NCBI GenBank assembly: GCA_964511015.1 | Contig: CAZEDX010000007.1 | Coordinates: 11,337 to 75,336 of the forward strand | Direction: 5' to 3' | Source of the DNA: an uncultured bacterium | GTDB lineage: Bacteria; Lernaellota; Lernaellaia; Lernaellales; Lernaellaceae | DNA length: 64,000 bases | Shown here: in pieces, positions 13,641 through 39,377 of the stretch | Position numbering within the stretch: position 1 is the stretch's first letter | How the letters are laid out: each line of letters opens with the position of its first letter | Made by a program: the position numbers and the translations under genes | Notes under the pieces: generated by a model | Told to the model about the DNA's origin: nothing | Databases searched by the model: none | The model's input: the letters and a program-made list of their open reading frames with translations, nothing else

Positions 13641-14381
13641 CTAGGCGCCTCCGCTGGCGATCTCCGCCACGATGGCGTCGGCCGCCTCGGCCGGATCGGG
13701 AGCCTGGGTGATCGGCCGGCCGATTACCAGGAAATCAGAACCATTGGCTACCGCGCCGGCCGGTGTGCAAAGGCGTTTCTGGTCGCCGGCATCGCTGCCT
13801 GCGGGACGGATGCCGGGGCTGACCACGAGGAAATCGGCACCGCATTCGCGCTTGATCGCCGCCGCTTCCTGCGCGCTGGCGACCACGCCGTCGACGCCGC
13901 ATTCCTTGGCCAAAACCGCCAGACGGAGCGCCGCTTCTTCCGGCGTGCCGAGGATGCCGACCTCGCGCAGATCCTGCCCGTTCAAGCTGGTCAGCACGGT
14001 CACTGCGACGACCAGCGGCGGCTTCTTGTCGGGCGGAGGCAAGACTTCGTGCGCGGCCTGCACGGCGGCGCGCATCATCTCGCGGCCGCCGGAAGCATGG
14101 ATGTTCAACATCCATACGCCGCTACGGGTGGCGGAACGCACCGCGCCGGCCACCGTGTTCGGTATGTCATGGAACTTCAGGTCGAGGAAGACATTGCAGT
14201 CCTCCAAAACCAGCCGGTCGACAAAACTGCGGCCTTCGCTACGAAAGCCCGCGGTCACGAACAGTTCCTTGCCCACCTTGAAGCCGCCGACGTGACCGTC
14301 GAGCTCGGCGACCAGGCGGAACGCCGCTTCGAAGTCGTTCACGTCTAGCGCAACCAACACCCGGTCAAGCGGTCGCAGCAT
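13641..14381 (-). CDS. pyrF: Orotidine-5'-phosphate decarboxylase
   Basis: [35 protein letters not shown]. Confidence 0.97.
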
Positions 14382-16095
14382 GACTTTCCTCGCGTATGAT
14401 GGTGCGAATCTTATCGACGATCTCGCTGCGCGGCACCAGCTCGAACTTGGCGACCGACCGGCGTTTGAGTTCCACCGCCTGCTGGTCCAGCGCTTTCTTG
14501 CCCACGGTGATGCGTAGCGGGAAGCCGATCAGATCGGCGTCCTTGAATTTGACGCCCGGCCGTTCGTCGCGGTCGTCCAACACGGTTTCGAAACCCGCCG
14601 CGATCAACTCGTCGTAGAGTTGCTGTGCCGCCTGGTACTCCGGTCCGTCGGTCTTGCCGATGGGCACCACGATCACCTGGTAGGGCGCGAGTGGTAACGG
14701 CCAAATGATGCCGTCGGCATCGTGATTCTGCTCGATCGACGCAGCGGCGGTGCGGCCGATCCCGATACCGTAGCAGCCCATGATCATTTCTTTTTCGACG
14801 CCGTTTTCGTCGAGGAACGTGGCGCGCATGTTCTTGGAGTACTTGGTGCCCAGTTTGAAGATGTGGCCGACCTCGATACCGCGCTGCAGGCAAAGTTTGC
14901 CGGGCGCGCAACGCGGGCAGGGGTCGCCGATTTCCGCCTGCCGGATGTCAGCGAATTGGGTGGGGGTGAAATCGCGGCCCAGGTTAACGCCGGTCACGTG
15001 CACGTCGACCTCGTTGCCGCCGGCGACGAAATTGCCGCGCCCGCGGAGGCTGAAGTCGGCGATCAGCCGTTCAACCTTTAAACCCTGCGGACCGGCGAAA
15101 CCCACTGGTGCGCCGGTGACCTGCTCGATCGTGGCCGGGTCGGCCAGATCTAGCGCATCGGCTTTGAGCAAACGCTGCAACTTGATCGCGTTGACTTCAT
15201 GGTTGCCAGCAACCAGCGCCACCACCGGTTGGCCGTCGGCGACGAATACGAGGGTCTTGATCAGATCGCGCGGCTGCACGCCCAGGAAGTTGGACACTTC
15301 CTCGATCGTGCGCCGGTTCGGCGTCGGCACCCGCTTCATTTCCTGCAGTGGGCCGGCAAACGGCTGTTCGGGCGCGATCGCCACTTCTGCCTTCTCCAGG
15401 TTCGCCGCGTAGCCGCAGTGGTCGCAGTAGATGATGGCGTCTTCGCCGGTTTCCGCCAGCACCATGAACTCGGCGCTGTAGCTGCCGCCGATGTTGCCGC
15501 TGTCGGCCTCGACCTCGCGGAACCGTAAGCCGCACCGCTGGAAGATGCGGTGATACGCCTGACGCATGGCCTCGTAGCTGACGTTGGCACCGGCGTCATC
15601 GATGTCGAAACTATAGGCGTCCTTCATCACGAATTCGCGCGCGCGCATCAGGCCGAAGCGCGGACGCACTTCGTCGCGGAATTTGGTTTGGATCTGGTAC
15701 AGGTTGATCGGCAGTTCGCGATACGAACGCACATCGCGCCGCACCAAGTCGGTGATCACTTCTTCGTGCGTCGGGCCGATGCAGAATTCGCGGTTGTGGC
15801 GGTCGTGCAGGCGGAGCAATTCCGGACCGTAGAATTGCCAGCGGCCCGATTCCTGCCACAACTCGGCCGGTTGCACGGCCGGCAGGAGCACTTCCTGCGC
15901 GCCGGCGCGATTCATCTCTTCGCGCACGATCTGTTCGACCTTGCGCACCGCGCGCAGTCCGAGCGGCAGGTAGTCGTAGATGCCGGCGGCGAGCTTGCGG
16001 ATCATTCCGCCGCGCAGCATGAGTTGATGGCTGAGCGCCTCCGCGTCGGAGGGGACTTCCTTCAGGGTCGGGGCAAACATCTTCGACAGTCGCAA
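14365..16095 (-). CDS. proS: Proline--tRNA ligase (bacterial type with editing insertion)
   Basis: [64 protein letters not shown]. Confidence 0.98.
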
Positions 16096-16105
16096 CTTGC
16101 TCTCC

Positions 16106-17176
16106 TTACCGGTTTCGTTCCCGCTTCAAAAAATCGAGCGCTTCGCGCACGCTCGCCATGATCTGATCGCGGCGCACCTTCTGCCAGAATTCGCCGCCTT
16201 TGTACATCAGGTACCCATCCGGCGCCGCAATGACGCCGACGTCGGCTTGGCGCGCCTCGCCGGGGCCGTTCACGCTGCAGCCCATCACCGCGATGTGCCA
16301 CGATTCCGGGAGGCGACCGAATTCGCGTTCGATCTCGTCGATCACGTCTTCCACCGGTCGTTCCAAACGGCCGCAGTTCGGACAACTGGTGATGTTGATG
16401 CCACGTTCGCGCAGGCCTAGACTTTTTAGAATGTCCCACGCGACCCGCACTTCTTCGAGCGGATCGCCGGTGAGGCTGACGCGGATCGTGTCGCCGATCC
16501 CTTCGTGCAACAGAATGCCCATGCCGACCGCGCTGCGCACGGTGCCCGCGCGGGCCGAGCCCGCCTCGGTCACGCCCAGGTGTAACGGAATGTCCGACCG
16601 CTGGGCGAACAGGCGGTTGGCTTCTACCGTGCGAGACACGTCGGACGCCTTCAGGCTGACTTTAATCTGCCGGAAGCCGAGTTCCTCAAGAATCGCCGCG
16701 TGTTGAAGCGCCGATTCCACCATCGCTTCCGGCGTCGGTGACCCGTACTTGCGCAGCAGCGCCTTTTCCAGGCTGCCGGAATTGACGCCGATGCGGATCG
16801 GCACGCCGCGGTCGGCGCAGGCCTGTACTACCTGTTCGACGCGTTTTCGTTCGCCGATGTTGCCCGGGTTGATGCGCAGCCCGGCCACGCCGGCGGCCAC
16901 GGCCTTGAGCGCCAGGCGGTAGTCGAAATGGATGTCGGCGACCAGCGGCACGCTGGTGCGGGACACAATTTCGGCGAGGGCGTCGGCGGCTGGTTCGTCT
17001 TTGACCGCCGAACGGACGATTTCCGCCCCCGCACCCTGCAACGCGTTGATTTGCGCGATGGTGGCGGCAACATCCCGCGTGTCGGTCTTGGTCATGGACT
17101 GCACCGAAACCGGCGCGCCGCCCCCCACCGGCACCTTGCCGATCATGATGCGTCGGGTCTGCTGGCGAGTGTTCAT
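16106..17176 (-). CDS. ispG: (E)-4-hydroxy-3-methylbut-2-enyl-diphosphate synthase
   Basis: [58 protein letters not shown]. Confidence 0.98.
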
Positions 17177-18549
17177 TCGGTCGTTCCCCGCGGCAATTCG
17201 ATGGCCAGTGCTTTGATTTTGCGATGCAGGTTGGAACGTTCCATGTTCACGGCCTCAGCCGCGCGAGAGATGTTCCAACCGGCTTCTTCGAGCTTGCGGA
17301 TCAAAAACGCGCGTTCGAATGCCGCCCGCGCTTCGCGGTAGTCGTTGGTTTCGAACAATCCGGCCCACGGGTCGGTGCGCGGTGGCTCGATGGTCAGCGT
17401 ATTGCGCACATCGATGCCGGTCACTTCGCGGGCGCGGGTCATGATCATCAATCGTTCCACAATGTTCTTCAGTTCGCGCACATTGCCCGGCCAGGAATAC
17501 TGTTGCAACAATTCGATGGCTTCCGCCGTGAATTCCCGCGCGGGGAGGCCGGACCGATCGCTGAACGAACGGCTGAAAAAGGCGATGAAGCCGGGGATGT
17601 CGCCCGCGCGGTCGCGCAACGGGGGCACGAACAGCGGGATGACATTGAGGCGGAAGAAAAGGTCTTCGCGAAAACGATTGGCCGCGATCTCTTCCCGTAG
17701 GTTCTTGTTGGTCGCCGCAATAACGCGCACGTCGGTCGGGATCTGCTCGCTGCCCCCGACCCGCTCGAAACGGTGTTCCTGCAGAATGCGCAGGATCTTG
17801 GCTTGGGTTTTCAGGCTCATGTCGGCGATTTCATCGAGGAAAATGGTGCCGCCATCGGCCAGTTCGAACTTGCCGCGCCGGCGTTCGGTCGCGCCGGTGA
17901 AGGCGCCTTTCTCGTGCCCGAACAATTCCGATTCGATCAGTTCCTCTGGAATCGCCGCGCAGTTGACCTCGATGAACGGCTGGCGGCTGCGGCGGGATCG
18001 CAGGTGTATCTGCCGCGCGACCAGTTCCTTGCCCGTGCCGTTCTCGCCGGTGATCAACACATAACTGTCGGTCGGCGCCGCTAGCGCGATCTGATCGCGC
18101 AACGCCTCGATCAGCGGGTGGCTGCCGATCATGTCGTACTTGTCTTCGATGCCGGCCTGCAGACGAAGGTTTTCCTCGGCCAGCCGGATCAAATCCATCA
18201 CCCGATTAACGGTTAGCACGGTTTCGGACAACGAAAGCGGTTTCTCGATGAAGTCGTAGGCGCCGAGTTTGGTGGCTTTGACCGCGGTTTCGATCGAACC
18301 ATGGCCGCTAATCATTATGACTTGCAGGTCGGGGAATAGTTCTTTTAATTTGGATAGAGTTTCCAGGCCGTCGAGCCCCGGCATCCAGATATCCAGAATG
18401 ACCAGGTCCGGCCGGTCATTTCGCACCGATTCCAGTGCCTGTTCGCCGGTGGAAACCGAATGAACGCGGTAACCCTCATCTTCCAGAATTCCCCCCAACG
18501 TCTGGCGGATATCAGGCTCATCGTCCACAATCAGCACGTAGCGTTTCAT
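17173..18549 (-). CDS. Sigma54-dependent response regulator (NtrX-like REC-AAA+-HTH)
   Basis: REC (IVDDE, LDIWMP), GENGTGKE, ESELFGHEKGAFTGA, WPGNVRELKN, Fis-type HTH. Confidence 0.93.
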   Translation of the reverse strand: MKRYVLIVDDEPDIRQTLGGILEDEGYRVHSVSTGEQALESVRNDRPDLVILDIWMPGLDGLETLSKLKELFPDLQVIMISGHGSIETAVKATKLGAYDFIEKPLSLSETVLTVNRVMDLIRLAEENLRLQAGIEDKYDMIGSHPLIEALRDQIALAAPTDSYVLITGENGTGKELVARQIHLRSRRSRQPFIEVNCAAIPEELIESELFGHEKGAFTGATERRRGKFELADGGTIFLDEIADMSLKTQAKILRILQEHRFERVGGSEQIPTDVRVIAATNKNLREEIAANRFREDLFFRLNVIPLFVPPLRDRAGDIPGFIAFFSRSFSDRSGLPAREFTAEAIELLQQYSWPGNVRELKNIVERLMIMTRAREVTGIDVRNTLTIEPPRTDPWAGLFETNDYREARAAFERAFLIRKLEEAGWNISRAAEAVNMERSNLHRKIKALAIELPRGTTE

Positions 18550-18866
18550 TTTTTCCTCAAACCAGCGTAACAGCAGCGGGCGGATTGTAGCACAAATGCA
18601 ACAGTGGGAAAGAAGGAATGAAGACGCGATGTTGTTTCGGGATCATTCTTCTTTTCTTGACAATCTTCCGTGATATCCGGTATGTTTGAAATAGAGACTC
18701 GAACAGGTAGGAGTATCTCATGAAGTGGCGCCCTTCGCCCAAACCAAGACCGAATCCCCCTTCTCGCTGACCGCGATCGGGTATAGCCGGTCCGATGACC
18801 GGCGGGGGAACGCGCAAAGCAGGCTTGCTCGCCGGGCTAACACTGTAAATTTGTTCTGAGAGCGCA

Positions 18867-19769
18867 ATGAAGCATCCCCCACCGCATCGTGAGCCGAAAG
18901 GCCGTGTTGGTGCGCTGCTTGGCGAACCACGCGAGGTTGAAGCCTACTTGTCTGGCGATGCCGGGCTGCACAACGTCTACGGCTATCAGCGCGCATTCAA
19001 TGTCGAACCGCGGGTAATGGATTTTCTTAACCCGGTTTCCCCTTTCTTTGCCCTCAAGAAATTGTCGAGTCGCCTGTACTTCGACTGCTTCGGCACGGCG
19101 TTATCCACCCTCCCGCGGGAGGCGCGGGTGCTCGATGTCGCCTGCGGTGTCGGGCGCTTTACCTTGCCGTTAGCTCAGCGGTTTGCCCAGGTGACCGCTT
19201 TCGATGCCTGTCCGTCGGCGGTGGATGCCTGCGAGCAACATCTGCGGGAAGCTGGTTTGACCAACGTTGAGCTGGCTTGGGCCGATTTGACTTGGCTCGA
19301 CGATTTGCCGGCCGAGTCCTTCGATCTGCTCTGCGCCATTGAGGTGTTGTGTTACACCGCGGAGGCGCCGGCTGCCGTGCAGCGACTGGCCCGGGTGGCC
19401 AAGCCTGGGGCGTTGTTGTTGGTCGCGGTCGAGGCCCAGCCAGGTGCGCTGTGCGGTCAGGCGATGGAACCGGTGGAGCTAGCGGCCGTATTGAACGGCG
19501 ATCCGCTGTTTCTGCGGCACGACCGTTGGGTTCGCTACTACGATCGCTCGGCGCTGACCGAACTGCTGACCGGCGGCGGCTGGCGCATGGAAGGGTTGAT
19601 CGGATCGCACTATGTGAGTGAGGGACCTTTCTGGCAGGCGATGGACGAGCGACGACTGGAGGATGTCGAATACGTCGAACGCATAATCGAAGTCGAGCGC
19701 TTGTGCCGCGAGCACCCACTGGCGCGTGATCTGGCGCGCGTGCTGTGCGCCACCGCGAGAAAAGGGTAG
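18867..19769 (+). CDS. Class I SAM-dependent methyltransferase
   Basis: VLDVACGVGRF motif I, FDLLCAIEVLCY. Confidence 0.88.
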   Translation: MKHPPPHREPKGRVGALLGEPREVEAYLSGDAGLHNVYGYQRAFNVEPRVMDFLNPVSPFFALKKLSSRLYFDCFGTALSTLPREARVLDVACGVGRFTLPLAQRFAQVTAFDACPSAVDACEQHLREAGLTNVELAWADLTWLDDLPAESFDLLCAIEVLCYTAEAPAAVQRLARVAKPGALLLVAVEAQPGALCGQAMEPVELAAVLNGDPLFLRHDRWVRYYDRSALTELLTGGGWRMEGLIGSHYVSEGPFWQAMDERRLEDVEYVERIIEVERLCREHPLARDLARVLCATARKG

Positions 19770-19772
19770 TTC

Positions 19773-21203
19773 GTGGCGAGAGTTTTTCTGATCAATCCGG
19801 GAATGGATGTGGCCGCCGGCTTCGGTGAATACCAGAAGCTGATGGAACCGATGCCGTGCGTCGGCCTGGCCTACCTGGCTGGCGCCGTCCGCGCGGCCGG
19901 TCATGAAGTGCGTGTGTTGGACAACTTCGTCAACAACCACCCCATCGACCGCGTGGTGGATCTGGTGCGCGAATGGCGCGCTGACGTCGCCGGTTTGTCC
20001 ATGCTGACCCCGACCGCGCGTTCGACCGCGGCGCTGGGCCGGGCGATCCGCGAACGGACCGGCGCGAAGGTCGTCCTCGGCAACCTTCACGCCTCGTTGT
20101 TCCATGAAGAATTGCTCGGTGAAGGCGCGGCCGATGCGGTTGTTCACGGTGAGGGTGAAGTGGTTTTTCCCCGCCTGGTCACCGCTCTGACCGACGGCGG
20201 CGACCCGACGGCCTGGCCGGGTGTCACCGTGCGCAACGGCAGTGGGGTGCGCGGGCAGGTCACGCCGGAGTTGATCGAGAACCTCGACGCGGTGCCGCGG
20301 CCGGCGTGGGATCTTTTCCCCTGGCGGTCCTACACCTTCCTGCCGTTTGTCACGGTGGCCAAACCGTGCCTTTCGTTACTGGGCACGCGTGGCTGTCCGT
20401 TCAATTGCAAGTTCTGTGCGCTCGGCTATCAGGGCAATCGGGTGCGTGTCCGCTCGCCCGAAAACATCACCGACGAAATCGAGTGGCTGGTGCGCGACTA
20501 CGGCATCCGCCACGTTGGTTTCGTTGACCCGATCTTTCCGCTGAGCAAAAAGCACGGACTGGCGACGTGCGCGGCGATACGCGAACGAAACATTCCCGGC
20601 GACTGGTGGTGGACGAGCGAAACGCGCGTGGACGTGGTGGACGAAGAGATCTGCCGTGCGATGAAATCGGCCCGGTGCAAGCGCATCTTGTACGGCGTCG
20701 AGAGTGGAGTCGACGAGCTGTTGGCCGGCGTGGGCAAGAAATTTACCACCGCCGATGTACGCCGAGCCGTGCAGGTGGCGCGTGCTGCCGATCTGGAAAT
20801 CTCGGCGTTTTTCATGCTCGGATTGCCCGGCGAAACCGCGGCGATGACCCGTCGAACCATCGAGTTCGCGCGCGAGCTGGACATCGACTTCGCCAAGTTC
20901 GGCATCACCATTCCGTTGCCGGGGTCCGAACTCTACGACAACCTGGTGCGCGACGGCCGCATCCAGCCCGGCGAGTGGGAAAAGTACACCACGTTCAATC
21001 CCGATCCGGATGCGTTGCCCTACGTGCCGACCGGTTTGACCGGCCGCGAGTTGCAGCGGCTGCATCGCCGCGCGACCTGGCAGTTCTACGTGCGGCCGAA
21101 GATGATCTTCAAACACCTGTTCACGGTGCGGTCGATCGGCTGGAAGCAGCTGTTCAACGGCGCGGCGATTCTGCTGCGTCAGCTATTCCGGGGACGGCTA
21201 TAA
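19773..21203 (+). CDS. Cobalamin-binding radical SAM protein
   Basis: N-terminal B12-binding domain (GLAYLAG, GEGE), RGCPFNCKFC, GVESG, FMLGLPGET. Confidence 0.93.
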   Translation: MARVFLINPGMDVAAGFGEYQKLMEPMPCVGLAYLAGAVRAAGHEVRVLDNFVNNHPIDRVVDLVREWRADVAGLSMLTPTARSTAALGRAIRERTGAKVVLGNLHASLFHEELLGEGAADAVVHGEGEVVFPRLVTALTDGGDPTAWPGVTVRNGSGVRGQVTPELIENLDAVPRPAWDLFPWRSYTFLPFVTVAKPCLSLLGTRGCPFNCKFCALGYQGNRVRVRSPENITDEIEWLVRDYGIRHVGFVDPIFPLSKKHGLATCAAIRERNIPGDWWWTSETRVDVVDEEICRAMKSARCKRILYGVESGVDELLAGVGKKFTTADVRRAVQVARAADLEISAFFMLGLPGETAAMTRRTIEFARELDIDFAKFGITIPLPGSELYDNLVRDGRIQPGEWEKYTTFNPDPDALPYVPTGLTGRELQRLHRRATWQFYVRPKMIFKHLFTVRSIGWKQLFNGAAILLRQLFRGRL

Positions 21204-22751
21204 ATGCGCGTACTGCTCGTGCGCCCGCCCAAATACCTGTGGCCCTACATGAACGAGCAGGACAACTACCTGCTGCCGCAGGCGGTCGTTTGTCTCGGCG
21301 CCGAGGCGCGCCGCCGCGGCCACGAAGTCACCCTGCTCGACTGCCTGCCGGTGAAGATGGGCTGGCGCAGCCTGGAGCGGACCATCCGTGAGTTGCGGCC
21401 GCAGGTCGTGTGCGCCGGCGACAGCGAGACGTTGTACCAGCACGAAAGCGGCCGGGTGTTCCAACTGGCCAAAGCGATCGATCCGCAAATTTTCACCATC
21501 GCGGGCGGTGTGCATTTCTCGCACGCCTGCGAACATGCCTTTGCCCACTACCCGATCGACGCGATCGTGCGTGGTGAGGGTGAACGGACTTTCGGCGAAT
21601 TGCTCGATACACTGGCCGGCGGCGGCACGATCGATCGTATCGCCGGGTTGGCGCTACCCGACGGCCAAGGCGGCGTACGCTACACCGCGCGCCGCGAACT
21701 GATCGACAACCTCGATGAACTTCCCTTGCCGGCCTATGACCTGATGCCGATGGACCGCTATGGCACGGCGCGCTATCTTTTCTCCCCCGGCGGCGTGACC
21801 ATGCACCACAGCCGCGGATGCGTCGACGGCTGCGCCTATTGCGCTTGCTGGCTGCAGATGGCGCGGCGCGACGGCCAACCACCCGGCGAGCAGCTGTTGC
21901 CGCGGTGGCGCACGCGCTCGGTCGGCCCGGTGGTCGACGAGATGGAGCTGCTGCGCCGGCGCTACGGCAAATCCTGCATCGTGTTCGTCGATGACACGTG
22001 GAACGTCGATCCGAAATGGAGCGATGCCTTTGCCGAGGAATTGCTGCGCCGGCGGCTGGACCTTGTCTGGTTCGCATTCATGCGCGCCGATCTACTCGCG
22101 CGCGACGAGGAATCTGGCCTGTTCGCCAAGTTGATGCGCGCGGGGCTGACCCACATTTGCATCGGCATGGAGCGGGCCGACGACGCCGAATTGCGAGATC
22201 TGCAGAAGCACAACATTCGGCTCGAACGCAGCACCGAACTGGTGCGCACCTTGCGCCGCAAACATCCGGCGTTGTTTCTGCAGACGACGTTCATCGTCGG
22301 GTTGCCACAGGACACGCCGGAGAGTCTGGACCGGCTGTTGGGCTACGTCGAAAGCATCGACCCCGATTACCCGGCGTTCCACCCGATCACGCCGGTGCCG
22401 GGCACGGCGTTGTGGGACCAGGCCAAGCAAGACCGGCGCTTGGAGATCACCGACTTTACGCGCTACGACTGGATGACGCCGGTCATGCGCACCGACACGA
22501 TGTCGCGGGAAGATCTCGAATATAAAATCTGGCAGATGAATTCGCGCTACCTCAATCCGTGGCGGATTCTGCGCGGGGCGCTCTCGCGCCACACCTACCG
22601 CCGGCGAATGTACCTATGGTGGTTGCTGGTTAGTGCGCGCGTTGGTTGGGATTTCGTGCTTGACCGCGTGCTGCCGTCGCGTTCGACCCGCCGCAAGGCC
22701 CAGCTCTCGCAGTACGTCGGCATGATCAAACCGGATTGGTACGACCGGTGA
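21204..22751 (+). CDS. Cobalamin-binding radical SAM protein (BchE-like architecture)
   Basis: GGVHFS, GEGE, RGCVDGCAYC, FVDDTW, FIVGLPQDT. Confidence 0.92.
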   Translation: MRVLLVRPPKYLWPYMNEQDNYLLPQAVVCLGAEARRRGHEVTLLDCLPVKMGWRSLERTIRELRPQVVCAGDSETLYQHESGRVFQLAKAIDPQIFTIAGGVHFSHACEHAFAHYPIDAIVRGEGERTFGELLDTLAGGGTIDRIAGLALPDGQGGVRYTARRELIDNLDELPLPAYDLMPMDRYGTARYLFSPGGVTMHHSRGCVDGCAYCACWLQMARRDGQPPGEQLLPRWRTRSVGPVVDEMELLRRRYGKSCIVFVDDTWNVDPKWSDAFAEELLRRRLDLVWFAFMRADLLARDEESGLFAKLMRAGLTHICIGMERADDAELRDLQKHNIRLERSTELVRTLRRKHPALFLQTTFIVGLPQDTPESLDRLLGYVESIDPDYPAFHPITPVPGTALWDQAKQDRRLEITDFTRYDWMTPVMRTDTMSREDLEYKIWQMNSRYLNPWRILRGALSRHTYRRRMYLWWLLVSARVGWDFVLDRVLPSRSTRRKAQLSQYVGMIKPDWYDR

Positions 22752-24228
22752 GCGGTTCGACGCCACGGCTGGCCGGCGCGCGCGTCGCTTTCCTCCAAAC
22801 CAATGCCATCAACGAATCGCTCGGCTTGTGCGACCTGGCCGGCCACCTCCGCGAGCAGGGGGTGACGACGCGCCTGTTCCTGCGGCGCGAAGAGCGGCGA
22901 TTGCCCGAAGAGTTGCGCGCCTTCGCGCCCGAGTTGGTCGTCATTCCGGCCGACCTGTTGGGCCACAACGGCGCCCTCGCGCTGGCTGCGCTGGCGAAGG
23001 CGGCCACCAACGCGCCGACCGTTCTGGGTGGTACGCACCCGACCTTCTTCCCCAACATCGTGCACCGGCCGCATGTCGATTTCGCCTTTGCCGGCGAAGC
23101 GGAAGGGGTAGTGACCGATCTGCTCGCGGCAGTACGTGGCGGCAGCGATCCGTCCGGCATCCCGAATCTCATTGTGCGCGAGGGCGACCAGGAACGCATC
23201 AATCCGTTGCGCCCGCTGGTGGCCGATCTCGACCGGACCGCACTGCCCGACCGCGAAATCTACTATCGCTATCCCTTCCTTTCCGCGTTTCCGTGGAAAA
23301 GTTTGCTACCGGCCGCGGTTGCCTAAATTCCTGCGGCTATTGCTTCAACCCGGCCTACCGCGGGTTGGCCGGCGGTCCGCACGGTTTCTTCCGGCGCAAG
23401 GGGCCAGCGCGCATCGTGCAGGAGATCGAGCAGGTGCGGGCACGGCACCGGTTGGGAATCGTGCATTTTTCCGACGATCTGTTTTCCAGTGGCGAGGAAT
23501 GGCTTGCCTCGTGTGCCGAGGTCTACCGCCGCGAGGTGGCGCTGCCATTCTCGTGCAATGTGTTTGCCACGACGATCAACGAACGCACTGTCGGCGCATT
23601 GCGCGATGCGGGTTGCCGCGTATTGGCGATGGGCGTCGAGATCGCCGATGACGACCTGCGCGTGCGTCTGCTCAACAAGCCGGTGCGCACCGAACAGATT
23701 GTCGCGGCGGCGGCGTTGGTCAAGCAGGCGGGCATCCGGCTGGTGACGTTCAACATTCTCGGCCTGCCATGGTCGTCGCCCGAACAAGACCTCGACACGC
23801 TGCTGCTTAACCGACGTCTGGGCGTCAGCCACACGCGTGTGGCCGTACTGGTTCCGTTCCCCAAAAGTGCACTGACCAAGAAGTTGATCGACGAAGGCTA
23901 TCTGTGCGCCGACTACCACGAGCGTATCTACGAACTCGACGATCTGCCGCGCTGGCCGGCCGAAAGCGTGTTCCGCCGGCGCGATGTCGATCAAACCATG
24001 CGACTGTTCCGCCTCTGGCACCTATTGTTGCGGCTGCCGTTGGCGAAACCGGCGTTATTGCGGCTGGTGCGGTCGCGATGGGCGCAAGCGCTCGTGCCCT
24101 TGGCCTGGTGGTTCGGTCTGACCAACGAGAAACGCCTCTTTGGATTCCGCTGGCGCGAAGGTTTTCGCTATTTCCGGCACGTCAAGAGCCCGGCGCTCAA
24201 AACCACCAATTACGTTTCGTTTGTCTGA
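22748..24228 (+). pseudogene. Cobalamin-binding radical SAM gene split by a frameshift at 23297-23300 (pseudogene, recoding or assembly error)
   Basis: GTG 22748 overlaps previous stop. B12 domain (GGTHPT, GEAE) ends at TAA 23326; the radical SAM half (FATGRGCLNSCGYC...) is in another frame to 24228. One extra A in TGGAAAAG restores ...PWKKFATGRGC. Confidence 0.85.
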
Positions 24229-24233
24229 ACCGG

Positions 24234-26531
24234 CTAGTGACTACCCGTGGCGAACCTGTGCGCCAGCATGATGACGGCCAGGGCGGCATAGCCGATTGCC
24301 GCCTGATAAATGATGTTGGTATAACCGAAGTTGATGATCATCATCATGGCGTAGGTAGCCCCCGCCACCGACGACAAGGTGCTGATAGCGTAGGTGACCG
24401 GCACGGCGTTGTCGCGCCCGTGCCCGGCCAGCCAGGTGACCACGTGCGGGTAGAAGAAGCCCAGGCACAAGCCGACCGGGGAGATGATCAAAACGGTGAT
24501 CACCGTCTTGACCGGCAGCGACCAGCCTAGGCGCCGTTCGATGACCGAGTGAATGATCGACGCCGAAACCGCGACGATGCCGGCCACGATCAGCGGCATC
24601 AGGTTCATCGGCAGCCGGCCGCGCAACCGGTTGTACAACGCGCTGCCCGCGGCGTTGGTCATCAGGAAAATGGTGAGCAACAACGCCATGCTGTATAGCG
24701 GGTTCTCCAGAAACAACTCTAGCTTGCCGATATAAGTGATCTCCACCAGCATGTAACAAAAGCCGGTGACGAGCAGGTACAACATCATGCTCGGCGGCGG
24801 CATCGGCGCGTGGCGCACGTAGAGGAAAGCCAGAATGCCCATCAACACTAAGGCGATCAGCAGCATGGTCGTGATTTTGATCCAACTCCGGTAGTACGCC
24901 ACCGTCGCCAACTCGGCACCGGACGGAATCAGCTTGAAGCCGGCGAAATCCAGCCGGTGTAGATAAGGGCGATCGTCGGTGACCAACAGCGGCTTCGGCA
25001 GCACCGGGCCTTCGATGGCTTTCACGGCGTCCGACCGGTTGTTGGGACGTCCCGGAAGGTAGCGCCGGGTCCGGCCGAACAGATCCGACAGCACTTGCGT
25101 GTCCTGCTCGCTGTAAGGGCTCATCGAGAACATCAGGTCATCGCAGCGGTCCAAGCGGTGACGCGACGCCAGGGCAACATGGTTTTTGAAATCGCTCATG
25201 CCCCGGTCGTTGAAAACCGCCTTCAGCGATTGAATCAGATGCGAAGCGGGTTGGCAGTTGAACATCAACATGCCGTTGGGTCGCAAGTGGTCGAGGTAGA
25301 TCTCGATCGCTTCTCTCGTGTCGAGGTATTTGCGGCTGTGACCGGTTTTGTATTGGGACGTGGCCGCGTCGGAACCGGCGTAGATAACGTCGTATTTGGT
25401 CCGGTCGTTGTCCATGAACCGGCGTCCCTCGACCAAATGCATTTTTACGTGCGGCAGAGCAAAGAAATCACGAAGGTGGTAGTCGGCTAGTTCCGGCGAT
25501 CCCAGGGCGAAATCCATCACTAGCGGGTTGATTTCCACGCCGACCAAACGCCGCCGCCCGCCGCCGATGGCGTTGAACTTGATCATGTCGCGGCCGCAGC
25601 CGGCAAACATGACCAGAATATCGTCGGTCGGCCGCCCCAGCAGGAACGGCGCGCGGACTTCGGAGTTCTTGGCGACCAACGATGAGTCGAGCGGCCGATA
25701 GGGAATGACATAGACATTGCTCTCGGCGTTGTCGTGGACGATCTTGTATTCAGTTCGTTCGTGGCCGGTCTTCTGGATGCTGACCAACGACACGCGGGAG
25801 AACTCGTTCCAACGGTGAGCGATTTCGCGCACAATGCTGTGTTTGTCGGCCACCGCTTGTTGCAGGTCATAACGACCTTCGAGAAAAACAAGCCATGGCA
25901 ACGTGGCTAGGCTAAGAACGAGAAAAACGCCGGCCGTCTTGATCTTTGCCCGGCCAAGCGCCATCGCGGTGACACCGGTCATCGCCAGTAGACAGATGAT
26001 GATCAGGTAAGGCAAGTCGATGAAGTGGAACAGCAGCGGGGTCACACAACAGGCCACCGAAGCGCCGAGCAAGTCACAACCGTAGATCTTGCCGATCCGT
26101 TGCCGATTGATCGCGTACAACGCCGTCAAGATTCGGCCCACGGCATAGAATGGTGGCAGAAAGACCGCCACGAACACGGCCGATTTGAAAAACGACTGCG
26201 CGCCGCCGACGTTCGTGCGGTGAGTGATGGGGAAGAACTGGCTGAACAGCAGGAAAGCCACGGCGAACGACAGGAACGACAACACCGTTAGCCGCGCCAA
26301 CTCCGTGGCCAGGGGGAATTCCTCCACGTTCTTCTTGGAACGGTGAACGCTCAGACTACCCACCGCCAGACCAAACAAGGTCAGCGGAATGGCCAGAAAG
26401 GCGTTGGCATAGTTTAGATAGAAAACGGACATGCGGGAGATCAGCAGCTCGAACATCAAGACGCAGAAAGAGAGAACCAGGACGATCAACAGCGCCTGGC
26501 GGGTTCTATTTTCTTCGGGGGTACCCAACAT
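24234..26531 (-). CDS. Multi-TM membrane protein with central spermidine-synthase/methyltransferase-like domain
   Basis: N- and C-terminal TM bundles flanking WNEFSRV, MFAGCGRD, GVEINP, EGRRF, YDVI...D motifs. Confidence 0.75.
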   Translation of the reverse strand: MLGTPEENRTRQALLIVLVLSFCVLMFELLISRMSVFYLNYANAFLAIPLTLFGLAVGSLSVHRSKKNVEEFPLATELARLTVLSFLSFAVAFLLFSQFFPITHRTNVGGAQSFFKSAVFVAVFLPPFYAVGRILTALYAINRQRIGKIYGCDLLGASVACCVTPLLFHFIDLPYLIIICLLAMTGVTAMALGRAKIKTAGVFLVLSLATLPWLVFLEGRYDLQQAVADKHSIVREIAHRWNEFSRVSLVSIQKTGHERTEYKIVHDNAESNVYVIPYRPLDSSLVAKNSEVRAPFLLGRPTDDILVMFAGCGRDMIKFNAIGGGRRRLVGVEINPLVMDFALGSPELADYHLRDFFALPHVKMHLVEGRRFMDNDRTKYDVIYAGSDAATSQYKTGHSRKYLDTREAIEIYLDHLRPNGMLMFNCQPASHLIQSLKAVFNDRGMSDFKNHVALASRHRLDRCDDLMFSMSPYSEQDTQVLSDLFGRTRRYLPGRPNNRSDAVKAIEGPVLPKPLLVTDDRPYLHRLDFAGFKLIPSGAELATVAYYRSWIKITTMLLIALVLMGILAFLYVRHAPMPPPSMMLYLLVTGFCYMLVEITYIGKLELFLENPLYSMALLLTIFLMTNAAGSALYNRLRGRLPMNLMPLIVAGIVAVSASIIHSVIERRLGWSLPVKTVITVLIISPVGLCLGFFYPHVVTWLAGHGRDNAVPVTYAISTLSSVAGATYAMMMIINFGYTNIIYQAAIGYAALAVIMLAHRFATGSH

Positions 26532-26633: not shown

Positions 26634-29600
26634 CTACGGTTTTTCGTCCAATAGGCTGCGTACACGCGTAGCTAGCATTTCGGGAGTGAAGGGCTTGCTG
26701 ACGAAGTTGATGCCGTTCTCCAAAATGCCATGGTGGACGATGACGTCTTCCGTGTAACCGGAGGTGAATAGCACGCGCAGGCCGGGGTAAAAGTTGCGGA
26801 GGCGATCCGCCAACTCGCGGCCGTTCATGCCCGGCATAATGACATCGGTGATCAGAAGTTGAATCGGGTGTGGATCCTTGGCTATCGCGGTGAGGGCGGC
26901 TGTGCCGCTGGGAAAGGCCAGGACCTTGTAGCCGAGCCTCTCCAGGATCTTGTATCCCAGGTCACGCACGACCGCTTCATCTTCGACCAGTATGATGGTC
27001 TCTCGCCCGCCGGGAAGCATGGCCGAACGAACCGGCGCCGATTCTTGCTCGCCTGCTTCCGCCGTGCGTGGCAGAAAAACCTTGAAGGTCGTGCCGTGGT
27101 TGACTTCGGAATACGCCGAAACGCTGCCACGGTTCTGTTTCACGATGCCGTAGACCGTGGCTAGGCCCAGGCCGGTGCCTTTGCCTAGCTCTTTGGTGGT
27201 AAAGAACGGTTCAAAAATGTGATCCAGCACATGCGGCGGCATGCCGCGGCCGGTGTCGCTGATCGCCAGGCAGATGTAAGCGCCGGGCAACATGTCCGGA
27301 TGACTTGCGCAGTATGCTTCGTCGAGTTCCACTCCGCTGGTTTCGATCGTCAGACGCCCGCCGTCGGGCATGGCATCGCGGGCATTGACGGCCAGGTTCA
27401 CTACGATCTGTTCGACCTGGCCGGGGTCGATCAATGCGCCGCCGATCCCATCGGGCAGGATCGTTACCAATTCGATGTCCTCGCCGATCAGGCGGCGCAA
27501 CATCTTCTGCAGGTTGCGGACGATATGATTGATGCTGACGTGTTTGGGCATCACGATCTGCCTGCGGCTGAAGGCGAGCAACTGGCGGGTCAGACCGGCC
27601 GCGCTTTCCGCCGCTTTGTTGATCTCTTCCAGCGTTTCACTCAGCGGGTCGCCGGGCGTGAGATCGAGCATGGCCAACGAGATGTTGCCCATGATGCCGG
27701 TCAGTAGGTTGTTGAAATCGTGGGCCACCCCCCCGGCGAGACGGCCGACCGACTCGAGTTTGCGGGCTTGCTCCAGTTGGGCCTCGAGTTTGGCCCGTTC
27801 TTGTTCGGCGTGCTTGCGTTCTGTGATGTCGCGAATTACCCCCAGGGTCCCATTCATGACGCCGTCTTTGTAAGCCGGGGAGGCTGTCAACTCGGCGTGG
27901 AAGGTGGTGCCGTCGAATCGTTTGGCGGTCAAGCGGAAGTCGGAAACGGCTTGTGCCGAACTCATACTCTCGCGAAAAGCCATCATGGCGCGTGGGATCT
28001 CCTCATCCGGCAGGAAATCGGTGAACATGCGACCCAGCATTTGCGCTTCGGTGCAGCGGAACATTTCGTTCACCGCCGGCGATGCGTAAGTGATCACGCC
28101 ATGGGTGTCGGTCAGGAAGATCAGACTCGGGATCTGTTCGGTGATGCGGCGCAGTCGTTCTTCGCTCTCGCGTACCGCTTCGGTCGCGCGTTTGTGTTCG
28201 ATCTGCTTCCACATAGCTTCCGCGATCAAAGTGATTTGGTTGACGTCGTTGTCGTCGTATTCTTCTTCCTTGTTGCCCACGCCCGCGACCAGCACAATGC
28301 GGCCGCCGGAAAACACCGGCAGATTCAGGTGTCGTTTGATGTGCACATGTCCGGCCGGATAGCCCCTTTTCCACGGGTTGTCCGCCTGGTAGTCATTGGT
28401 GAAAATCGGCCGGCGTTGCCGCACGGCTTCGCCCCACAGGCCCGTAGTGTCGATGGGGTACTTGATCGGCTTGTCGACCATCGCGCACTCGGCCAAGGCT
28501 GACCCCGACCAGGAATGCATGGTCAGTATGCGTTCGTCCGCATCGTAAAAAGCCAGGTAACCGATGCGGCTCTTGGTCAGCCGCACGATGGCCTCCAGCG
28601 CGTAGTCAGTAATCTCCGCCAACGGCGCGTCTTCCATTTGGTTCAAGTGCAGCATCGCTTCGATGCGTTCCGCATTCAGACGCAACGCCTCTTCGGCCCG
28701 CCGGCGCTCGGAGATTTCGGTGAACACCGCCACCATCTTGCCGGGCGTGGTTTGGAACGCGCGGACTTCAAACACCCCGGCGATCTTGTTGTCGTGGTAG
28801 ATCATCTGCTCGGTAGACCAAGGAATACCTTTGGCCGCGGCGTCGCGATACCGCGCTGGGATCTCGGTGTCGATCAACGACGGGAAGGCTTCTTCGATGG
28901 TCTTGCCGACGAATTGGGTGTGATCCAGGCCGACGAAGTGATCCGCCGCCGAGTTCGAACCAAGAAAGACCAGTCGGCCGTCGTCGTGCAACTGGTAGAA
29001 ATGCATACCCATCGGCGAATTCTCGACGAGCGAGCGGTACATGATGTCGCCTTCTCGGGCGGCGTCTTCAATTCGTTTGCGCTCGGCAACTTCCCACGCG
29101 ATATCCGCGGCATATGCAGCGGTGTCGAGGTCCTTTTCCGTGTAGTCGTTCGCTTTGTTGCCGATACCCATCACCGCGACGATGCGTTCGCCGCGGAAAA
29201 TCGGCACCAGGAGTTCGCGAACCACCTCGGCGTGCCCGGTGGGCATTCCGCGGCGGTTGGGCAGGGAAGCGACGTCATTATGGATCAGCGGCCGTCGTTC
29301 GCGGACGCAGTCGATCCAGACGCCGGCCTGGTCGATGCTGTAGTGGCGGCTGCTCGGGTCGGCCTGACAGAACTCGCGTAAAGTGCGGCTGGACCAAGCT
29401 TGCAGTGAAAGCGAACGCTGGTCTTCCGAAACGTAGTGGAAAAAGCCAATGGGGCTGCCGGTCAAGTCGCCCACTCGATCCAGCGTTTCCTGCAACAATT
29501 CCGGCATGGTGTGCGTGGCCGCATACTGGGTCAGGTGCAGCCGCAATTCCATCAGCTTTTCGGTACGTTTGCGCTCGGTGATGTCGCGCAAATTGACGAC

Positions 29601-30866
29601 CACCGCATGGACCCGCGGGTCGTCGAGCAGGTTGCAGCCCACCGCTTCCAGATAGCGCCATTCGCCACTCGTATGCTGTTGGCGGTATTCCACCCGCCGC
29701 ACCGCGCCTGGTTCGCGCAAACCCGATTGAAAGACCTCCATCACTCCCGGCATATCGTCCGGGTGCATCTTTTCAAACGCGTTGCGGCCGATCCACGCCG
29801 AGGCCGGCAGGCCGGTCAGGGATTCGATCGGTTCGCTGACATAGAACGACACGCCGTTGGCGTCGAGTGTCGTCACTGCGTCGTTTGAGTTTTGAATCAG
29901 CAGCCGGAACCGAGCTTCGCTGGCGGCCAGTTTCTCTTCCGCGCGCCGGCGCTCGGTAATGTCTAGCGCCAGCGAACCGAAGCGGTAACCTTTGTCGGTT
30001 TTGATCGGAAAGACGACCTGCTGTATCTCAAGTCGTTCGCCTCGTCGGTTGACGATCGAGAAGTTGTCGCCACCGGCGAAGACAGGCTCGCCGGTGCGCA
30101 AGGCCTTTTGAATCGCCCGCCGGGCCGCTTCGCGTTTTTGCTCCACGTGCTCCCGGTCGATGAACATCTCGGCCAGTATGTCCCAGAGCGGTCGCCCCAC
30201 TGTTTCCGCGCGGCTCATCCCCGACATTTTTTCCGAGGCGGCATTCCATTCGACCACCAGGCCATCCTCGTCCACGATGTGCACGGCCAGCGCCGAATGC
30301 TCGATGAAGGAACGCAGGATTTCCTCGCTGCGCTGAACGTTTTCCTCGGCGCGCTTGCGTGCCGTTACGTCGCGAGTGACCCCGATCAGCCCAATCGCCG
30401 TTCCTTGTTCGTCGCGCAGGAAACGAATGGTGTTTTCGGTCCAGATCATCGACCCGTCACGGCAATACTCTTCCAAAAGCAGTGTTCTCGTACGGTCTTT
30501 GGGAACGGTTGGGTCTTGCTCCAGCGCCATCTCTTCTTGAAAAGCCGTAATCGCCACGGCCAGCGACTCGGGGGTCATGACCTCCGGTAGGGTCTGCTTC
30601 AGGGATTCCTCGACTGTATAGCCGCGCATCCAAGCCACCGCCGGGCTCGAATACGTGAATTCCAGGTTCATATTGCAGATCCAGATCACATCGGTGGCGT
30701 TGTCCACCACGAGGCGGTACTTTTCGACCTCCGCCTGCAACTCGGCGACGCGTTGTTCCAATTGCGTCACGCGGCTGAGCTCCGCCTTTTTCGAAGTTCC
30801 AGGGTCGCGCTTGCTTTCAGTTTTCAGATGGTTGGTCCTCTTTGGCGCGTCCAACTTTTCTTTCAT
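26634..30866 (-). CDS. Cytoplasmic hybrid histidine kinase (about 5 PAS, 2 GAF, HisKA, HATPase, REC)
   Basis: ATG 30866 with GGAG-rich SD; repeated PAS ends (RDVT/LDIT/RDIT), HDFNNLL, NARDAMP, GTGLGL, C-terminal LLITDVIMP...KPF. Confidence 0.93.
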   Translation of the reverse strand: MKEKLDAPKRTNHLKTESKRDPGTSKKAELSRVTQLEQRVAELQAEVEKYRLVVDNATDVIWICNMNLEFTYSSPAVAWMRGYTVEESLKQTLPEVMTPESLAVAITAFQEEMALEQDPTVPKDRTRTLLLEEYCRDGSMIWTENTIRFLRDEQGTAIGLIGVTRDVTARKRAEENVQRSEEILRSFIEHSALAVHIVDEDGLVVEWNAASEKMSGMSRAETVGRPLWDILAEMFIDREHVEQKREAARRAIQKALRTGEPVFAGGDNFSIVNRRGERLEIQQVVFPIKTDKGYRFGSLALDITERRRAEEKLAASEARFRLLIQNSNDAVTTLDANGVSFYVSEPIESLTGLPASAWIGRNAFEKMHPDDMPGVMEVFQSGLREPGAVRRVEYRQQHTSGEWRYLEAVGCNLLDDPRVHAVVVNLRDITERKRTEKLMELRLHLTQYAATHTMPELLQETLDRVGDLTGSPIGFFHYVSEDQRSLSLQAWSSRTLREFCQADPSSRHYSIDQAGVWIDCVRERRPLIHNDVASLPNRRGMPTGHAEVVRELLVPIFRGERIVAVMGIGNKANDYTEKDLDTAAYAADIAWEVAERKRIEDAAREGDIMYRSLVENSPMGMHFYQLHDDGRLVFLGSNSAADHFVGLDHTQFVGKTIEEAFPSLIDTEIPARYRDAAAKGIPWSTEQMIYHDNKIAGVFEVRAFQTTPGKMVAVFTEISERRRAEEALRLNAERIEAMLHLNQMEDAPLAEITDYALEAIVRLTKSRIGYLAFYDADERILTMHSWSGSALAECAMVDKPIKYPIDTTGLWGEAVRQRRPIFTNDYQADNPWKRGYPAGHVHIKRHLNLPVFSGGRIVLVAGVGNKEEEYDDNDVNQITLIAEAMWKQIEHKRATEAVRESEERLRRITEQIPSLIFLTDTHGVITYASPAVNEMFRCTEAQMLGRMFTDFLPDEEIPRAMMAFRESMSSAQAVSDFRLTAKRFDGTTFHAELTASPAYKDGVMNGTLGVIRDITERKHAEQERAKLEAQLEQARKLESVGRLAGGVAHDFNNLLTGIMGNISLAMLDLTPGDPLSETLEEINKAAESAAGLTRQLLAFSRRQIVMPKHVSINHIVRNLQKMLRRLIGEDIELVTILPDGIGGALIDPGQVEQIVVNLAVNARDAMPDGGRLTIETSGVELDEAYCASHPDMLPGAYICLAISDTGRGMPPHVLDHIFEPFFTTKELGKGTGLGLATVYGIVKQNRGSVSAYSEVNHGTTFKVFLPRTAEAGEQESAPVRSAMLPGGRETIILVEDEAVVRDLGYKILERLGYKVLAFPSGTAALTAIAKDPHPIQLLITDVIMPGMNGRELADRLRNFYPGLRVLFTSGYTEDVIVHHGILENGINFVSKPFTPEMLATRVRSLLDEKP

Positions 30867-30979
30867 CCGTCTCCCGCCTCTAAGTCCATTCGGCCAATCT
30901 AACAATCAGCGAAAGCGAAAAGCAATCAAACGTGCCGCGATCTTCCAATCATGCGGAGTTTGTTGCAGTGCCCCTAATT

Positions 30980-31993: not shown

Positions 31994-32013
31994 GATCCCT
32001 CCCTTGCGTCCGT

Positions 32014-32502
32014 TTAACGCGGTGGCAGCGACCGCAGCCAACCGCTCAGCCAGCGGCACAACGCATCGTCGGGCAGACGCGACAGCGTGAACAACGCCCC
32101 GTCGCGGTTGCCGGTCGCCAATTGCGCTAGCGCCAGTGCGCGCACTTCGTCGCGCGCATAGCGCGAAGCGACGGCCGCCAATTCGCGTCGCCGGATCTCC
32201 TCGGCCGACAAGCGCCCGCACCAGGCGGCCAGCTCGCCGGCGATCTCGGTCTTGCCCGCCAAATCTTTGTTTTGCAGATAGTGCTGCATCGCCTTGGTAT
32301 ACAGGGCCTGGGCCTGCCCAAACGCTCGGCAATCGCCGCCGATGCCGCGCACCATCGCCGCATCGGCCGCGTACACGTGCTGCCGCTCGGTCTCCCGATG
32401 GCCGACTTGCAGGCGAACGCCCAGCGCGAACAAGGCGGCCAGCACCAGCAGCGATATCAGACCGACGACGATGTTGCGGCGGCGATCGGACTCAACTGGC
32501 AT
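32014..32502 (-). CDS. Hypothetical single-TM protein
   Basis: N-terminal TM (IVVGLISLLVLAALFALGV) then helical domain; packed between neighbours on the same strand. Confidence 0.65.
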   Translation of the reverse strand: MPVESDRRRNIVVGLISLLVLAALFALGVRLQVGHRETERQHVYAADAAMVRGIGGDCRAFGQAQALYTKAMQHYLQNKDLAGKTEIAGELAAWCGRLSAEEIRRRELAAVASRYARDEVRALALAQLATGNRDGALFTLSRLPDDALCRWLSGWLRSLPPR

Positions 32503-33190: not shown

Positions 33191-33250
33191 GGGGCACTAG
33201 CATTAGCACAGCGGCGCGTAAATGCAACGAAGCACCGACGGAGACGGGCC

Positions 33251-37988: not shown

Positions 37989-37989
<1 letters not shown>
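36133..37989 (+). CDS. Membrane sensor histidine kinase (HAMP-PAS-HisKA-HATPase, NtrB-like)
   Basis: Two TMs, HAMP (DEINFL), AHEIRNPL, NLLKNA, DNGPGI, GTGLGL. Confidence 0.93.

Positions 37990-39377
<1,388 letters not shown>

Follow-up and report, generated by a model that had tools for sequence, protein, structure and literature searches.

We describe here a gene cluster in a 64-kb (64,000 nt) stretch of DNA from an uncultured bacterium of the Lernaellaceae (contig CAZEDX010000007.1; hereafter the window), in which genes for a methyltransferase (MT) and three cobalamin (B12)-binding radical S-adenosylmethionine (SAM) enzymes (R1, R2 and R3) are preceded by a gene for a very short peptide, here called the WRP peptide. 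The locus is probably an undescribed cassette of the type for peptides that are ribosomally made and then modified post-translationally (RiPPs), that is, a system by which uncultured anaerobes modify a ribosomal peptide. The evidence that carries this reading is the peptide gene itself, its association with the enzymes when either is used as the starting point of a search, the varied positions, orientations and core numbers in which it occurs, and the class of the enzymes.

An earlier note on this DNA had stated that no precursor peptide lies nearby. This was found to be wrong, as a conserved 16-codon open reading frame (ORF) is present in the 317-nt spacer between a divergent sigma-54 response-regulator gene and MT (Table 1). 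The encoded peptide has a net charge of about +4.5 and consists of 38% Pro. When all fetched loci were scanned for the consensus M-x-W-R-P-[S/A]-P-[K/R/I]-P-[K/R]-P, ORFs of this kind were found adjoining MT, R1 or R2 homologues at 27 distinct loci, and a relaxed rule (a short ORF with a Shine-Dalgarno site and W[R/K]PxP in the first nine residues) identified peptide ORFs in 33 of 89 enzyme-anchored loci, from several phyla, with 0 false positives. Examples are MNWRPAPKPRPNPPTR, MQWRPSPKPKPNPPQ, MQEWRPSPKPRPKPH, MNWRPAPIPKPTPKPRPRD, MNWRPSPRPKPGPKK and MKANWRPAPKVKKPKK. The peptides are 13-23 residues long, with the conserved motif beginning at residue 3; the N-terminal W-R-P-x-P stays constant, and the tails of Lys, Arg and Pro vary in length and sequence.

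Table 1. Positions of the peptide gene, the operon genes and associated sequence signals in the window (aa, amino acids).
Feature	Position	Strand	Basis
Sigma-70-like promoter, TTGACA-18 nt-TATGTT, about 34 nt 5' of the peptide start	18657-18686	+	motif match
Shine-Dalgarno AGGAG, 6 nt before the peptide ATG	18709-18713	+	read from sequence
WRP peptide gene; 16 aa, leaderless, cationic, proline-rich, MKWRPSPKPRPNPPSR; proposed substrate	18720-18770	+	conserved ORF
MT; class I SAM-dependent methyltransferase, 300 aa	18867-19769	+	ORF and Pfam
R1; B12-binding radical SAM, 476 aa, CPFNCKFC, GTG start	19773-21203	+	ORF and Pfam
R2; B12-binding radical SAM, 515 aa, CVDGCAYC	21204-22751	+	ORF and Pfam
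R3; third B12-binding radical SAM gene, CLNSCGYC, about 493 aa on read-through, frameshifted	22748-24228	+	
R3 frameshift site; A4 run, one A short of the orthologues	23297-23300	+	alignment with orthologues and strains

The pattern of nucleotide change is that of a coding sequence. The nine-codon core occurs in 26 distinct DNA versions, across which the W, the R and three Pro are invariant and those Pro use all four codons, with an entropy of 0.41, 0.37 and 1.41 bits at codon positions 1, 2 and 3. At locus L005 ('Deltaproteobacteria bacterium fen_1099'), the closest relative of the window, the peptide is identical to that of the window; at the DNA level three Pro codons are changed synonymously and the stop codon is another one, and the surrounding spacer has diverged. 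The other loci listed have a GGAG- or AGGA-type site 6-10 nt 5' of their peptide ORF. Judged from these sequences, the ORF is a translated gene under coding selection. We considered an RNA element in place of an ORF and rejected it: there was no Rfam match and no tRNA, and the spacer RNA was not unusually structured, the RNA between the peptide ORF and MT in the window folding no better than shuffled sequence (z = 0.59). The promoter of Table 1 is the sole promoter-like match in 18400-24600, yet 1.3 would be expected by chance; L005 and L208 have a TTGACA box at a similar distance 5' of their peptide gene, and we regard the assignment as suggestive only. The peptide gene goes uncalled by annotators, the NCBI record from which L208 derives being an example. 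The peptide has no match among the NCBIfam models, and neither the motif nor such a peptide family was found in the literature searched, which was open-access text, an earlier description elsewhere being possible.

The linkage was also observed in the reverse direction. In a metagenome contig collection, a search with a degenerate 32-nt pattern for the DNA of M-x-W-R-P-x-P-x-P-x-P gave at least 120 stretches. Among the matches listed, an MT or B12-radical SAM homologue was present within 2 kb of 18 of the 25 peptide-like ones (short ORF with a Shine-Dalgarno site) versus 2 of the 95 others, which mostly fall inside long frames (Fisher p = 7e-14). Both members of the latter pair are real family members whose Shine-Dalgarno site was missed by the pattern, and several of the seven remaining peptide-like matches lie on contigs too short to judge.

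The position of the peptide gene relative to the enzyme genes is not fixed, MT being the gene that most often adjoins it. The order peptide, MT, R1, R2 (with or without R3) is seen in the window and in Lernaellota-like, Syntrophales and Elusimicrobia metagenome-assembled genomes (MAGs); the ORF of the window and of its close relatives is on the strand of MT, 95-270 nt 5' of it. In a marine 'Deltaproteobacteria' clade the peptide gene comes after R1, at a distance of about 100 nt, and a terminator-like hairpin follows it. In Myxococcota-like and other MAGs it adjoins MT-R2, sharing their strand or diverging from them, and a terminator-like hairpin of its own is often present; at further loci it stands in front of an R1 paralogue. 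At L209 the order is peptide, MT, R2, and no other radical SAM gene is present; the same order recurs in many metagenome loci, and the minimal module is the peptide, MT and R2. Tandem cores were also found. The gene at L098 945-1070 (- strand) encodes three, MN(WRPSPRPKPGPKA)x3, with a first copy that differs by synonymous changes only, and protein P0241 contains two tandem copies of the 13-residue core WRPSPRPKPGPKA. Multi-core precursors are a trait of ribosomal natural products, not of regulatory leaders. When all ORFs around both the enzymes and the peptide were clustered, no other gene family was kept with either across clades; around R1 homologues the clustering returned solely other B12-radical SAM genes, MT and antisense shadow ORFs.

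The operon was largely as the earlier note had described it. Its coordinates, its gaps of 3 nt (MT/R1) and 0 nt (R1/R2), the overlap of the R3 GTG at 22748 with the R2 stop (GTGA) and the three Cys motifs were all confirmed by the ORFs and the sequence; the claim of a four-gene operon holds, save that the fourth gene, R3, proved to be split between two frames. MT matches Methyltransf_11, 25, 23, 31 and 12 of Pfam (E = 1e-14 to 1e-19). For R1, R2 and R3, respectively, the scores are 73.7, 43.0 and 43.0 bits with PF02310 (B12-binding, cut-off 32.1) and 83.8, 45.5 and 63.2 bits with PF04055 (Radical_SAM, cut-off 29.5), and each has the CX3CX2C motif for the [4Fe-4S] cluster and SAM inside its Radical_SAM domain. 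With pairwise identities of about 24-26%, they are indeed three divergent B12-binding radical SAM proteins, as had been claimed. Their domains place them in class B (cobalamin-binding) of the radical SAM proteins, where the modelled fold also places R2. Pfam detected only the B12-binding and Radical_SAM domains in R1-R3, and no RiPP recognition element (RRE)/PqqD-like domain. No hydrophobic segment of membrane-spanning length was found in MT, R1, R2 or R3, and no further B12-radical SAM gene in the window.

None of the four proteins reached a curated NCBIfam cut-off. The best match was BchE for R1 (170 bits) and R2 (178 bits), against a cut-off of 481, and BzaD for R3 (83 bits, cut-off 450). 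In the order R1/R2/R3, the scores were 170/178/77 for BchE (TIGR02026, the anaerobic Mg-protoporphyrin IX monomethyl ester cyclase), 134/107/38 for HpnR (cut-off 650), 131/98/71 for HpnJ (578), 103/75/83 for BzaD/BzaE (450), 89/62/62 for the RiPP C-methyltransferase TIGR03975 (282) and 121/73/63 for ApyD (NF050148; 750). TIGR04014, a model for methylation of methyl-coenzyme M reductase (MCR), gave 33-97 bits (cut-off 360), and the models for ladderane-type lipid radical SAM enzymes, AprD4, PhpK, TsrM and the MCR glutamine methylase scored far under their thresholds. The earlier note had proposed asking whether the enzymes fall in characterised isofunctional families; with all NCBIfam scores below cut-off, none does. 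The cassette may act like the TIGR03975 and ApyD RiPP families, yet its enzymes are not members of them.

By sequence, the solved structure nearest to R1 is that of AprD4 (E = 3e-31), an enzyme in which a B12 domain is present and B12 is not used. No relative of R2 in the PDB was better than E = 7.5e-5 by sequence. An AlphaFold2 model of R2 (pLDDT 87.7, pTM 0.88) gave AprD4, TsrM, CysS, OxsB, MgmA and TokK as top Foldseek matches, with TM-scores of 0.6-0.68 and superposition over the whole length; as modelled, R2 has the generic class-B radical SAM architecture and no specific affinity. The 536 homologues of R2 at E <= 1e-30 include 0 with an experimental name, and the 'BchE' label that JGI gives to homologues is an automatic annotation.

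Homologues of R1 number in the hundreds, and every one that carries an organism name comes from a metagenome or a MAG. Orthologues 57-83% identical to R1 occur in Lernaellota-like, Syntrophales and Elusimicrobia MAGs. L005 keeps the order MT-R1-R2-R3 with an intact R3, at identities of 71%, 83%, 87% and 80%, respectively; the R2 of Candidatus Lernaella stagnicola (phylum Ca. Lernaellota) is 73% identical, and DNA near-identical to the window was found in wastewater and sludge metagenomes. The MT-R1-R2 core is present also at L001, L003, L008, L009, L011, L013, L086 and L208. Synteny in relatives, which had been suggested as a test, was thus observed for this core. Because no characterised family fits the enzymes and MT-R1-R2 is syntenic, the pathway looks undescribed, as the earlier note had held. 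Some of the MAGs with R1 homologues (L018, L020, L036, L038 and L042), which are marine or freshwater bins, are titled 'Rickettsiales', 'Enterobacterales' or 'Klebsiella pneumoniae'; these unlikely titles are probably mislabelling.

The third radical SAM gene behaves differently across loci, being adjacent, 1-7 kb off or absent, and the other B12-radical SAM paralogues differ from locus to locus. R3 is an accessory gene of the module. The idea of three enzymes in series as a unit did not survive: R3 is accessory and broken here, and the minimal module elsewhere has R2 alone beside the peptide and MT. The number of B12-radical SAM paralogues per cluster ranges from one (L209) to about eleven (L040). 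The latter is the most enzyme-rich version seen, with its paralogues gathered in 21 kb (L040 1-21404) round one MT and one peptide gene (14052-14102, MRFPQWRPSPRPKPKE). A five-enzyme version at L003 contains, at 13656-15492, a peptidase-U32 gene and a second class I methyltransferase. Some U32 proteins are O2-independent hydroxylases. At L001 (13022-16270) and L208 (12566-15805) a gene for a Tricorn-like S41 peptidase of about 1080 aa is convergent with R2 and directly after it, and a second S41/PDZ peptidase gene lies a few kb upstream. Both S41 genes were seen only in these two Lernaella-like loci, where they could represent a processing protease or plain lineage synteny.

In the window, the frame opened at 22748 ends at a TAA (23324-23326), and the CLNSCGYC motif lies in another frame that runs to 24228. 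At the site where the window has tgg-aaaa-gtt, the sequence of intact R3 orthologues is ...FPWKKFATGRGC..., and in Logan contigs from a pair of related populations (X1, about 97% identical; X3, about 93% identical) an A is inserted behind 23296; contigs of these types come from wastewater and other metagenomes. The run is thus one A short, the additional A being present both in the orthologues and in these 93-97% identical strains. The read-through product has the B12-binding and Radical_SAM domains and aligns without a break to intact orthologues, with 80% identity over 493 aa to the L005 gene and 60% to the L003 gene, and no signs of interruption were seen in other large genes of the window. 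A genuine mutation and a residual homopolymer assembly error are both possible, and they are indistinguishable because no 100%-identical reads cover 23297-23300. A programmed frameshift was rejected, since the relatives have one A more and the A4 in tgg-aaaa-g is not a slippery heptamer.

In the scheme that we propose, a promoter at about 18657 would drive the gene at 18720-18770 for the leaderless 16-residue peptide MKWRPSPKPRPNPPSR, with MT, R1, R2 and R3 downstream on the same strand. We infer that this peptide is the substrate of the modifying enzymes, and the kind and sites of modification and the role of the product are put forward in the same spirit. Each B12-radical SAM enzyme would use a 5'-deoxyadenosyl radical derived from its [4Fe-4S] cluster and SAM, together with cobalamin, to alter unactivated carbons of the Trp-Arg-Pro-x-Pro segment, and carbons of the Pro-x-Pro tail would be altered as well. 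The likeliest chemistry would be C-methylation, which B12-radical SAM enzymes carry out on the peptides of polytheonamides, bottromycins and clavusporins (PMC10849626). A radical (Trp-Arg) cross-link or a ring is admitted as an alternative because the class also forms rings, contracts rings, dehydrates and desaturates (PMC13459092; bioRxiv 10.1101/2025.10.20.683597). MT, a class I methyltransferase, would place a methyl group on a heteroatom, and the outcome would be a small proline-rich peptide that is cationic, multiply alkylated and resistant to proteases. The R3 step in this genome would be either truly lost, through the frameshift, or seemingly lost, through a homopolymer assembly error. 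The B12-radical SAM enzymes of bottromycin are site-specific, and one to about eleven paralogues per cluster would fit site-specific enzymes here.

Several observations weigh against the peptide as the substrate of a RiPP cassette. No peptide was found within 10 kb in about 55 of the 89 R1-anchored loci, and three of the seven remaining peptide-like matches, the ORFs at L117, L157 and L189, have no radical SAM or MT gene nearby, these being either orphan copies or chance matches. The sequences of R1-R3 are no nearer to peptide-modifying B12-radical SAM enzymes (TIGR03975, 62-89 bits; ApyD, 63-121 bits) than to BchE (77-178 bits). A leader region, an RRE/PqqD-like domain, a protease, an exporter or an immunity gene was not found conserved with the module. 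In one clade the module has the housekeeping neighbours LpxC, RuvA/B/C and DUF192, which is unusual for a secondary-metabolite island, and none of the locus sequence occurs in the listed RNA runs.

The earlier note had preferred a lipid, an envelope glycan or a metabolite as the substrate. Under this reading the enzymes would tailor a lipid, a glycan or a small metabolite stepwise and the small ORF would be unrelated to the chemistry. The best sub-threshold NCBIfam matches (BchE, HpnR, HpnJ and the ladderane-type lipid radical SAM enzymes) agree with it, as do the missing protease and exporter and the GT-C/PMT_2, GT2 and YfhO genes that recur near the clusters L003, L086, L087 and L019 and at 33179-36072 of the window. 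However, none of these matches reaches a family cut-off, and the glycosyltransferase neighbours are not kept across clades whereas the peptide gene, the sole partner of the enzymes across phyla, is. Apart from the housekeeping gene ispG, the 64 kb contain no shc, hpn, tes/mss, fatty-acid or isoprenoid-tailoring genes, the four enzymes have no membrane-spanning segment, and the strong purifying selection on the peptide and its multi-core forms would be left unexplained. The preference is weakened because its premise, that there is no precursor, was wrong, and we now consider such a substrate unlikely. We give still less credence to the peptide as the precursor of a small cofactor or metabolite excised from the invariant Trp-Arg(-Pro), in the manner of pyrroloquinoline quinone (PQQ) or mycofactocin. 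Invariance limited to the N-terminal W-R-P-x-P with variable tails would suit such a precursor, and so would a minimal module of just two enzymes, the absence of exporter and immunity genes and the position of the module amid housekeeping genes in one clade. Neither a peptidase conserved with the module nor a module-linked redox enzyme that would use the cofactor was found, however, and the conservation of the Pro-x-Pro periodicity and the cationic tail beyond W-R suggests that the whole peptide matters.

It is very improbable that the small ORF is a cis-acting regulatory leader, in which a proline-rich arrest or attenuation peptide controls the MT/radical SAM operon. Proline-rich nascent chains do slow ribosomes, and the ORF of the window and of its close relatives, 95-270 nt 5' of MT, has the position and strand expected of a leader. 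In the marine clade, however, it lies after R1 with a terminator-like hairpin, and in others it is divergent from MT-R2; this idea is largely refuted because a cis leader has no place downstream of the genes that it controls or divergent from them. The two- and three-core versions and the RNA between ORF and MT, unremarkable beside shuffled sequence, also speak against it. We return to the peptide as a RiPP precursor, and compare that reading with known systems.

The bottromycin pathway comprises three class-B radical SAM C-methyltransferases, one O-methyltransferase and a short precursor without an N-terminal leader, and its targets include a proline beta-carbon. The inventory is the same here, with three B12-radical SAM enzymes, one SAM methyltransferase and a small precursor that has no classical leader. 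Bottromycin clusters are actinobacterial and contain YcaO, amidohydrolase, P450 and protease genes and a follower peptide, all of which are absent from the present locus, and no specific sequence relationship was detected. In the clavusporins and the polytheonamides (PoyB/PoyC), as proposed here, unactivated carbons in a ribosomal peptide receive several C-methyls from a B12-radical SAM enzyme. The operon for the clavusporins (MpcA/MpcB/MpcC) occurs widely and serves a physiological role (PMC10849626). MpcB, which uses a CX7CX2C motif, depends on a DUF5825 partner, a leader/follower precursor of 39 residues, a peptidase and a transporter, whereas this locus has CX3CX2C and 13-23-residue precursors and lacks DUF5825, leader, peptidase and transporter. 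The biarylitides, made from an ultrashort, leaderless 5-residue precursor that gene callers miss and a P450 (PMC12951456), provide a precedent for a RiPP precursor like the WRP peptide; their biaryl cross-link is formed by the cytochrome P450 and not by a B12-radical SAM enzyme, and their cores are unrelated to WRP.

Outside natural products, the cobalamin radical SAM enzymes Mmp10 and QCMT/MgmA C-methylate sp3 carbons of Arg and Gln in MCR (PMC8828468, PMC13469106). The structural neighbours of R2 include MgmA (TM-score about 0.6-0.7). In contrast to our locus, the substrate in these archaeal systems is a large enzyme subunit and there is no dedicated small peptide gene. BzaC/BzaD/BzaE, which serve the anaerobic synthesis of dimethylbenzimidazole (the B12 lower ligand), and BchM/BchE also combine a class I methyltransferase with one or more B12-radical SAM enzymes, but the scores are far below the cut-offs and the window contains no bzaA/B/F, cobT or bch genes. 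The lipid-modifying enzymes HpnP/HpnR, GrsA/B, Gmm, the glycerol dialkyl glycerol tetraether (GDGT) methylases and Ted belong to the same class and methylate, form rings or desaturate at unactivated carbons (PMC13459092; bioRxiv 10.1101/2025.10.20.683597); they differ in that HpnR and HpnJ are sub-threshold and no hopanoid or tetraether genes lie nearby, the archaeal families having no model in the libraries used. Going by sequence comparison, what would be new here is the precursor family, the enzyme clades and the combination without leader, RRE, protease or exporter, a RiPP with B12-radical SAM tailoring being of a kind already known.

The rest of the window, as read from Pfam, contains dnaK/dnaJ/grpE, proS, ispG, two-component systems, glycosyltransferases and a dcw cluster (division and cell wall). 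The statement that no NRPS/PKS or bch genes are nearby is true for the whole 64 kb, and no shc, hpn, tes/mss or fatty-acid genes were found there either. The flanks of the operon (a sigma-54 response regulator, a 765-aa membrane protein, a hybrid kinase and a tocopherol-cyclase-like gene) are not conserved beside the module elsewhere. Sigma-54-dependent response regulators are encoded at 17173-18549 and 37731-39377. The 765-aa protein (24234-26531, - strand) is polytopic by eye and has no Pfam family; its gene is convergent with R3, with 5 nt between the stops, and its sole match, at 16 bits, is a faint N-terminal one to a model for polyamine aminopropyltransferase. The - strand also encodes a hybrid sensor kinase of 1423 aa (26634-30905), with four PAS, two GAF, HisKA, HATPase and receiver domains, and, at 30980-32332, a protein of 450 aa whose tocopherol-cyclase-like domain scores 33 bits (PF14249). 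VTT/DedA, GT1 glycosyltransferase and PMT_2-like GT-C genes come after the latter; this region, unlinked to the module in other genomes, may be an envelope-lipid or glycoconjugate locus. The GT1 and PMT_2-like genes lie about 9-10 kb 3' of the operon, and glycosyltransferases are not constant across clusters. In the dcw cluster (51041-57846), where gene names were inferred solely from Pfam domains and gene order, a second Mur ligase gene (52552-53958) is directly followed by a MurD-like gene (53958-55289), and an FtsW gene (55271-56497) is directly followed by a MurC-type ligase domain from about 56480; mraY and murG are not seen in their usual places.

On a wider view the locus may be the founding member of a phylum-spanning RiPP family, the 'WRP peptides', a proposal that we make tentatively and with slightly more doubt than belief. 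Its precursors would be leaderless, cationic, Pro-x-Pro-rich peptides of 13-23 residues with one to three cores, invisible to gene callers and tailored by one to about eleven site-specific B12-radical SAM enzymes and a methyltransferase, and the products might act on the ribosome or a chaperone, serving as a weapon or for internal regulation. The hosts are uncultured anaerobes of the Lernaellota, Syntrophales, marine 'Deltaproteobacteria', Myxococcota, Omnitrophota and Elusimicrobiota. The composition of the peptides resembles that of eukaryotic proline-rich antimicrobial peptides, a likeness to be taken as a lead only.

If the peptide is the substrate, several hundred MAG proteins now labelled 'BchE-like' or 'radical SAM' would gain a concrete and testable substrate that is cheap to synthesise, and radical chemistry on Trp, Arg, Pro or Lys would be readable as mass shifts. 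It would also follow that clusters scored as precursor-free can hide precursors under the 30-codon limit of gene callers, and phyla without cultured members would have yielded a new RiPP family. Even if the peptide is not the substrate, its tight linkage to the enzymes needs explaining.

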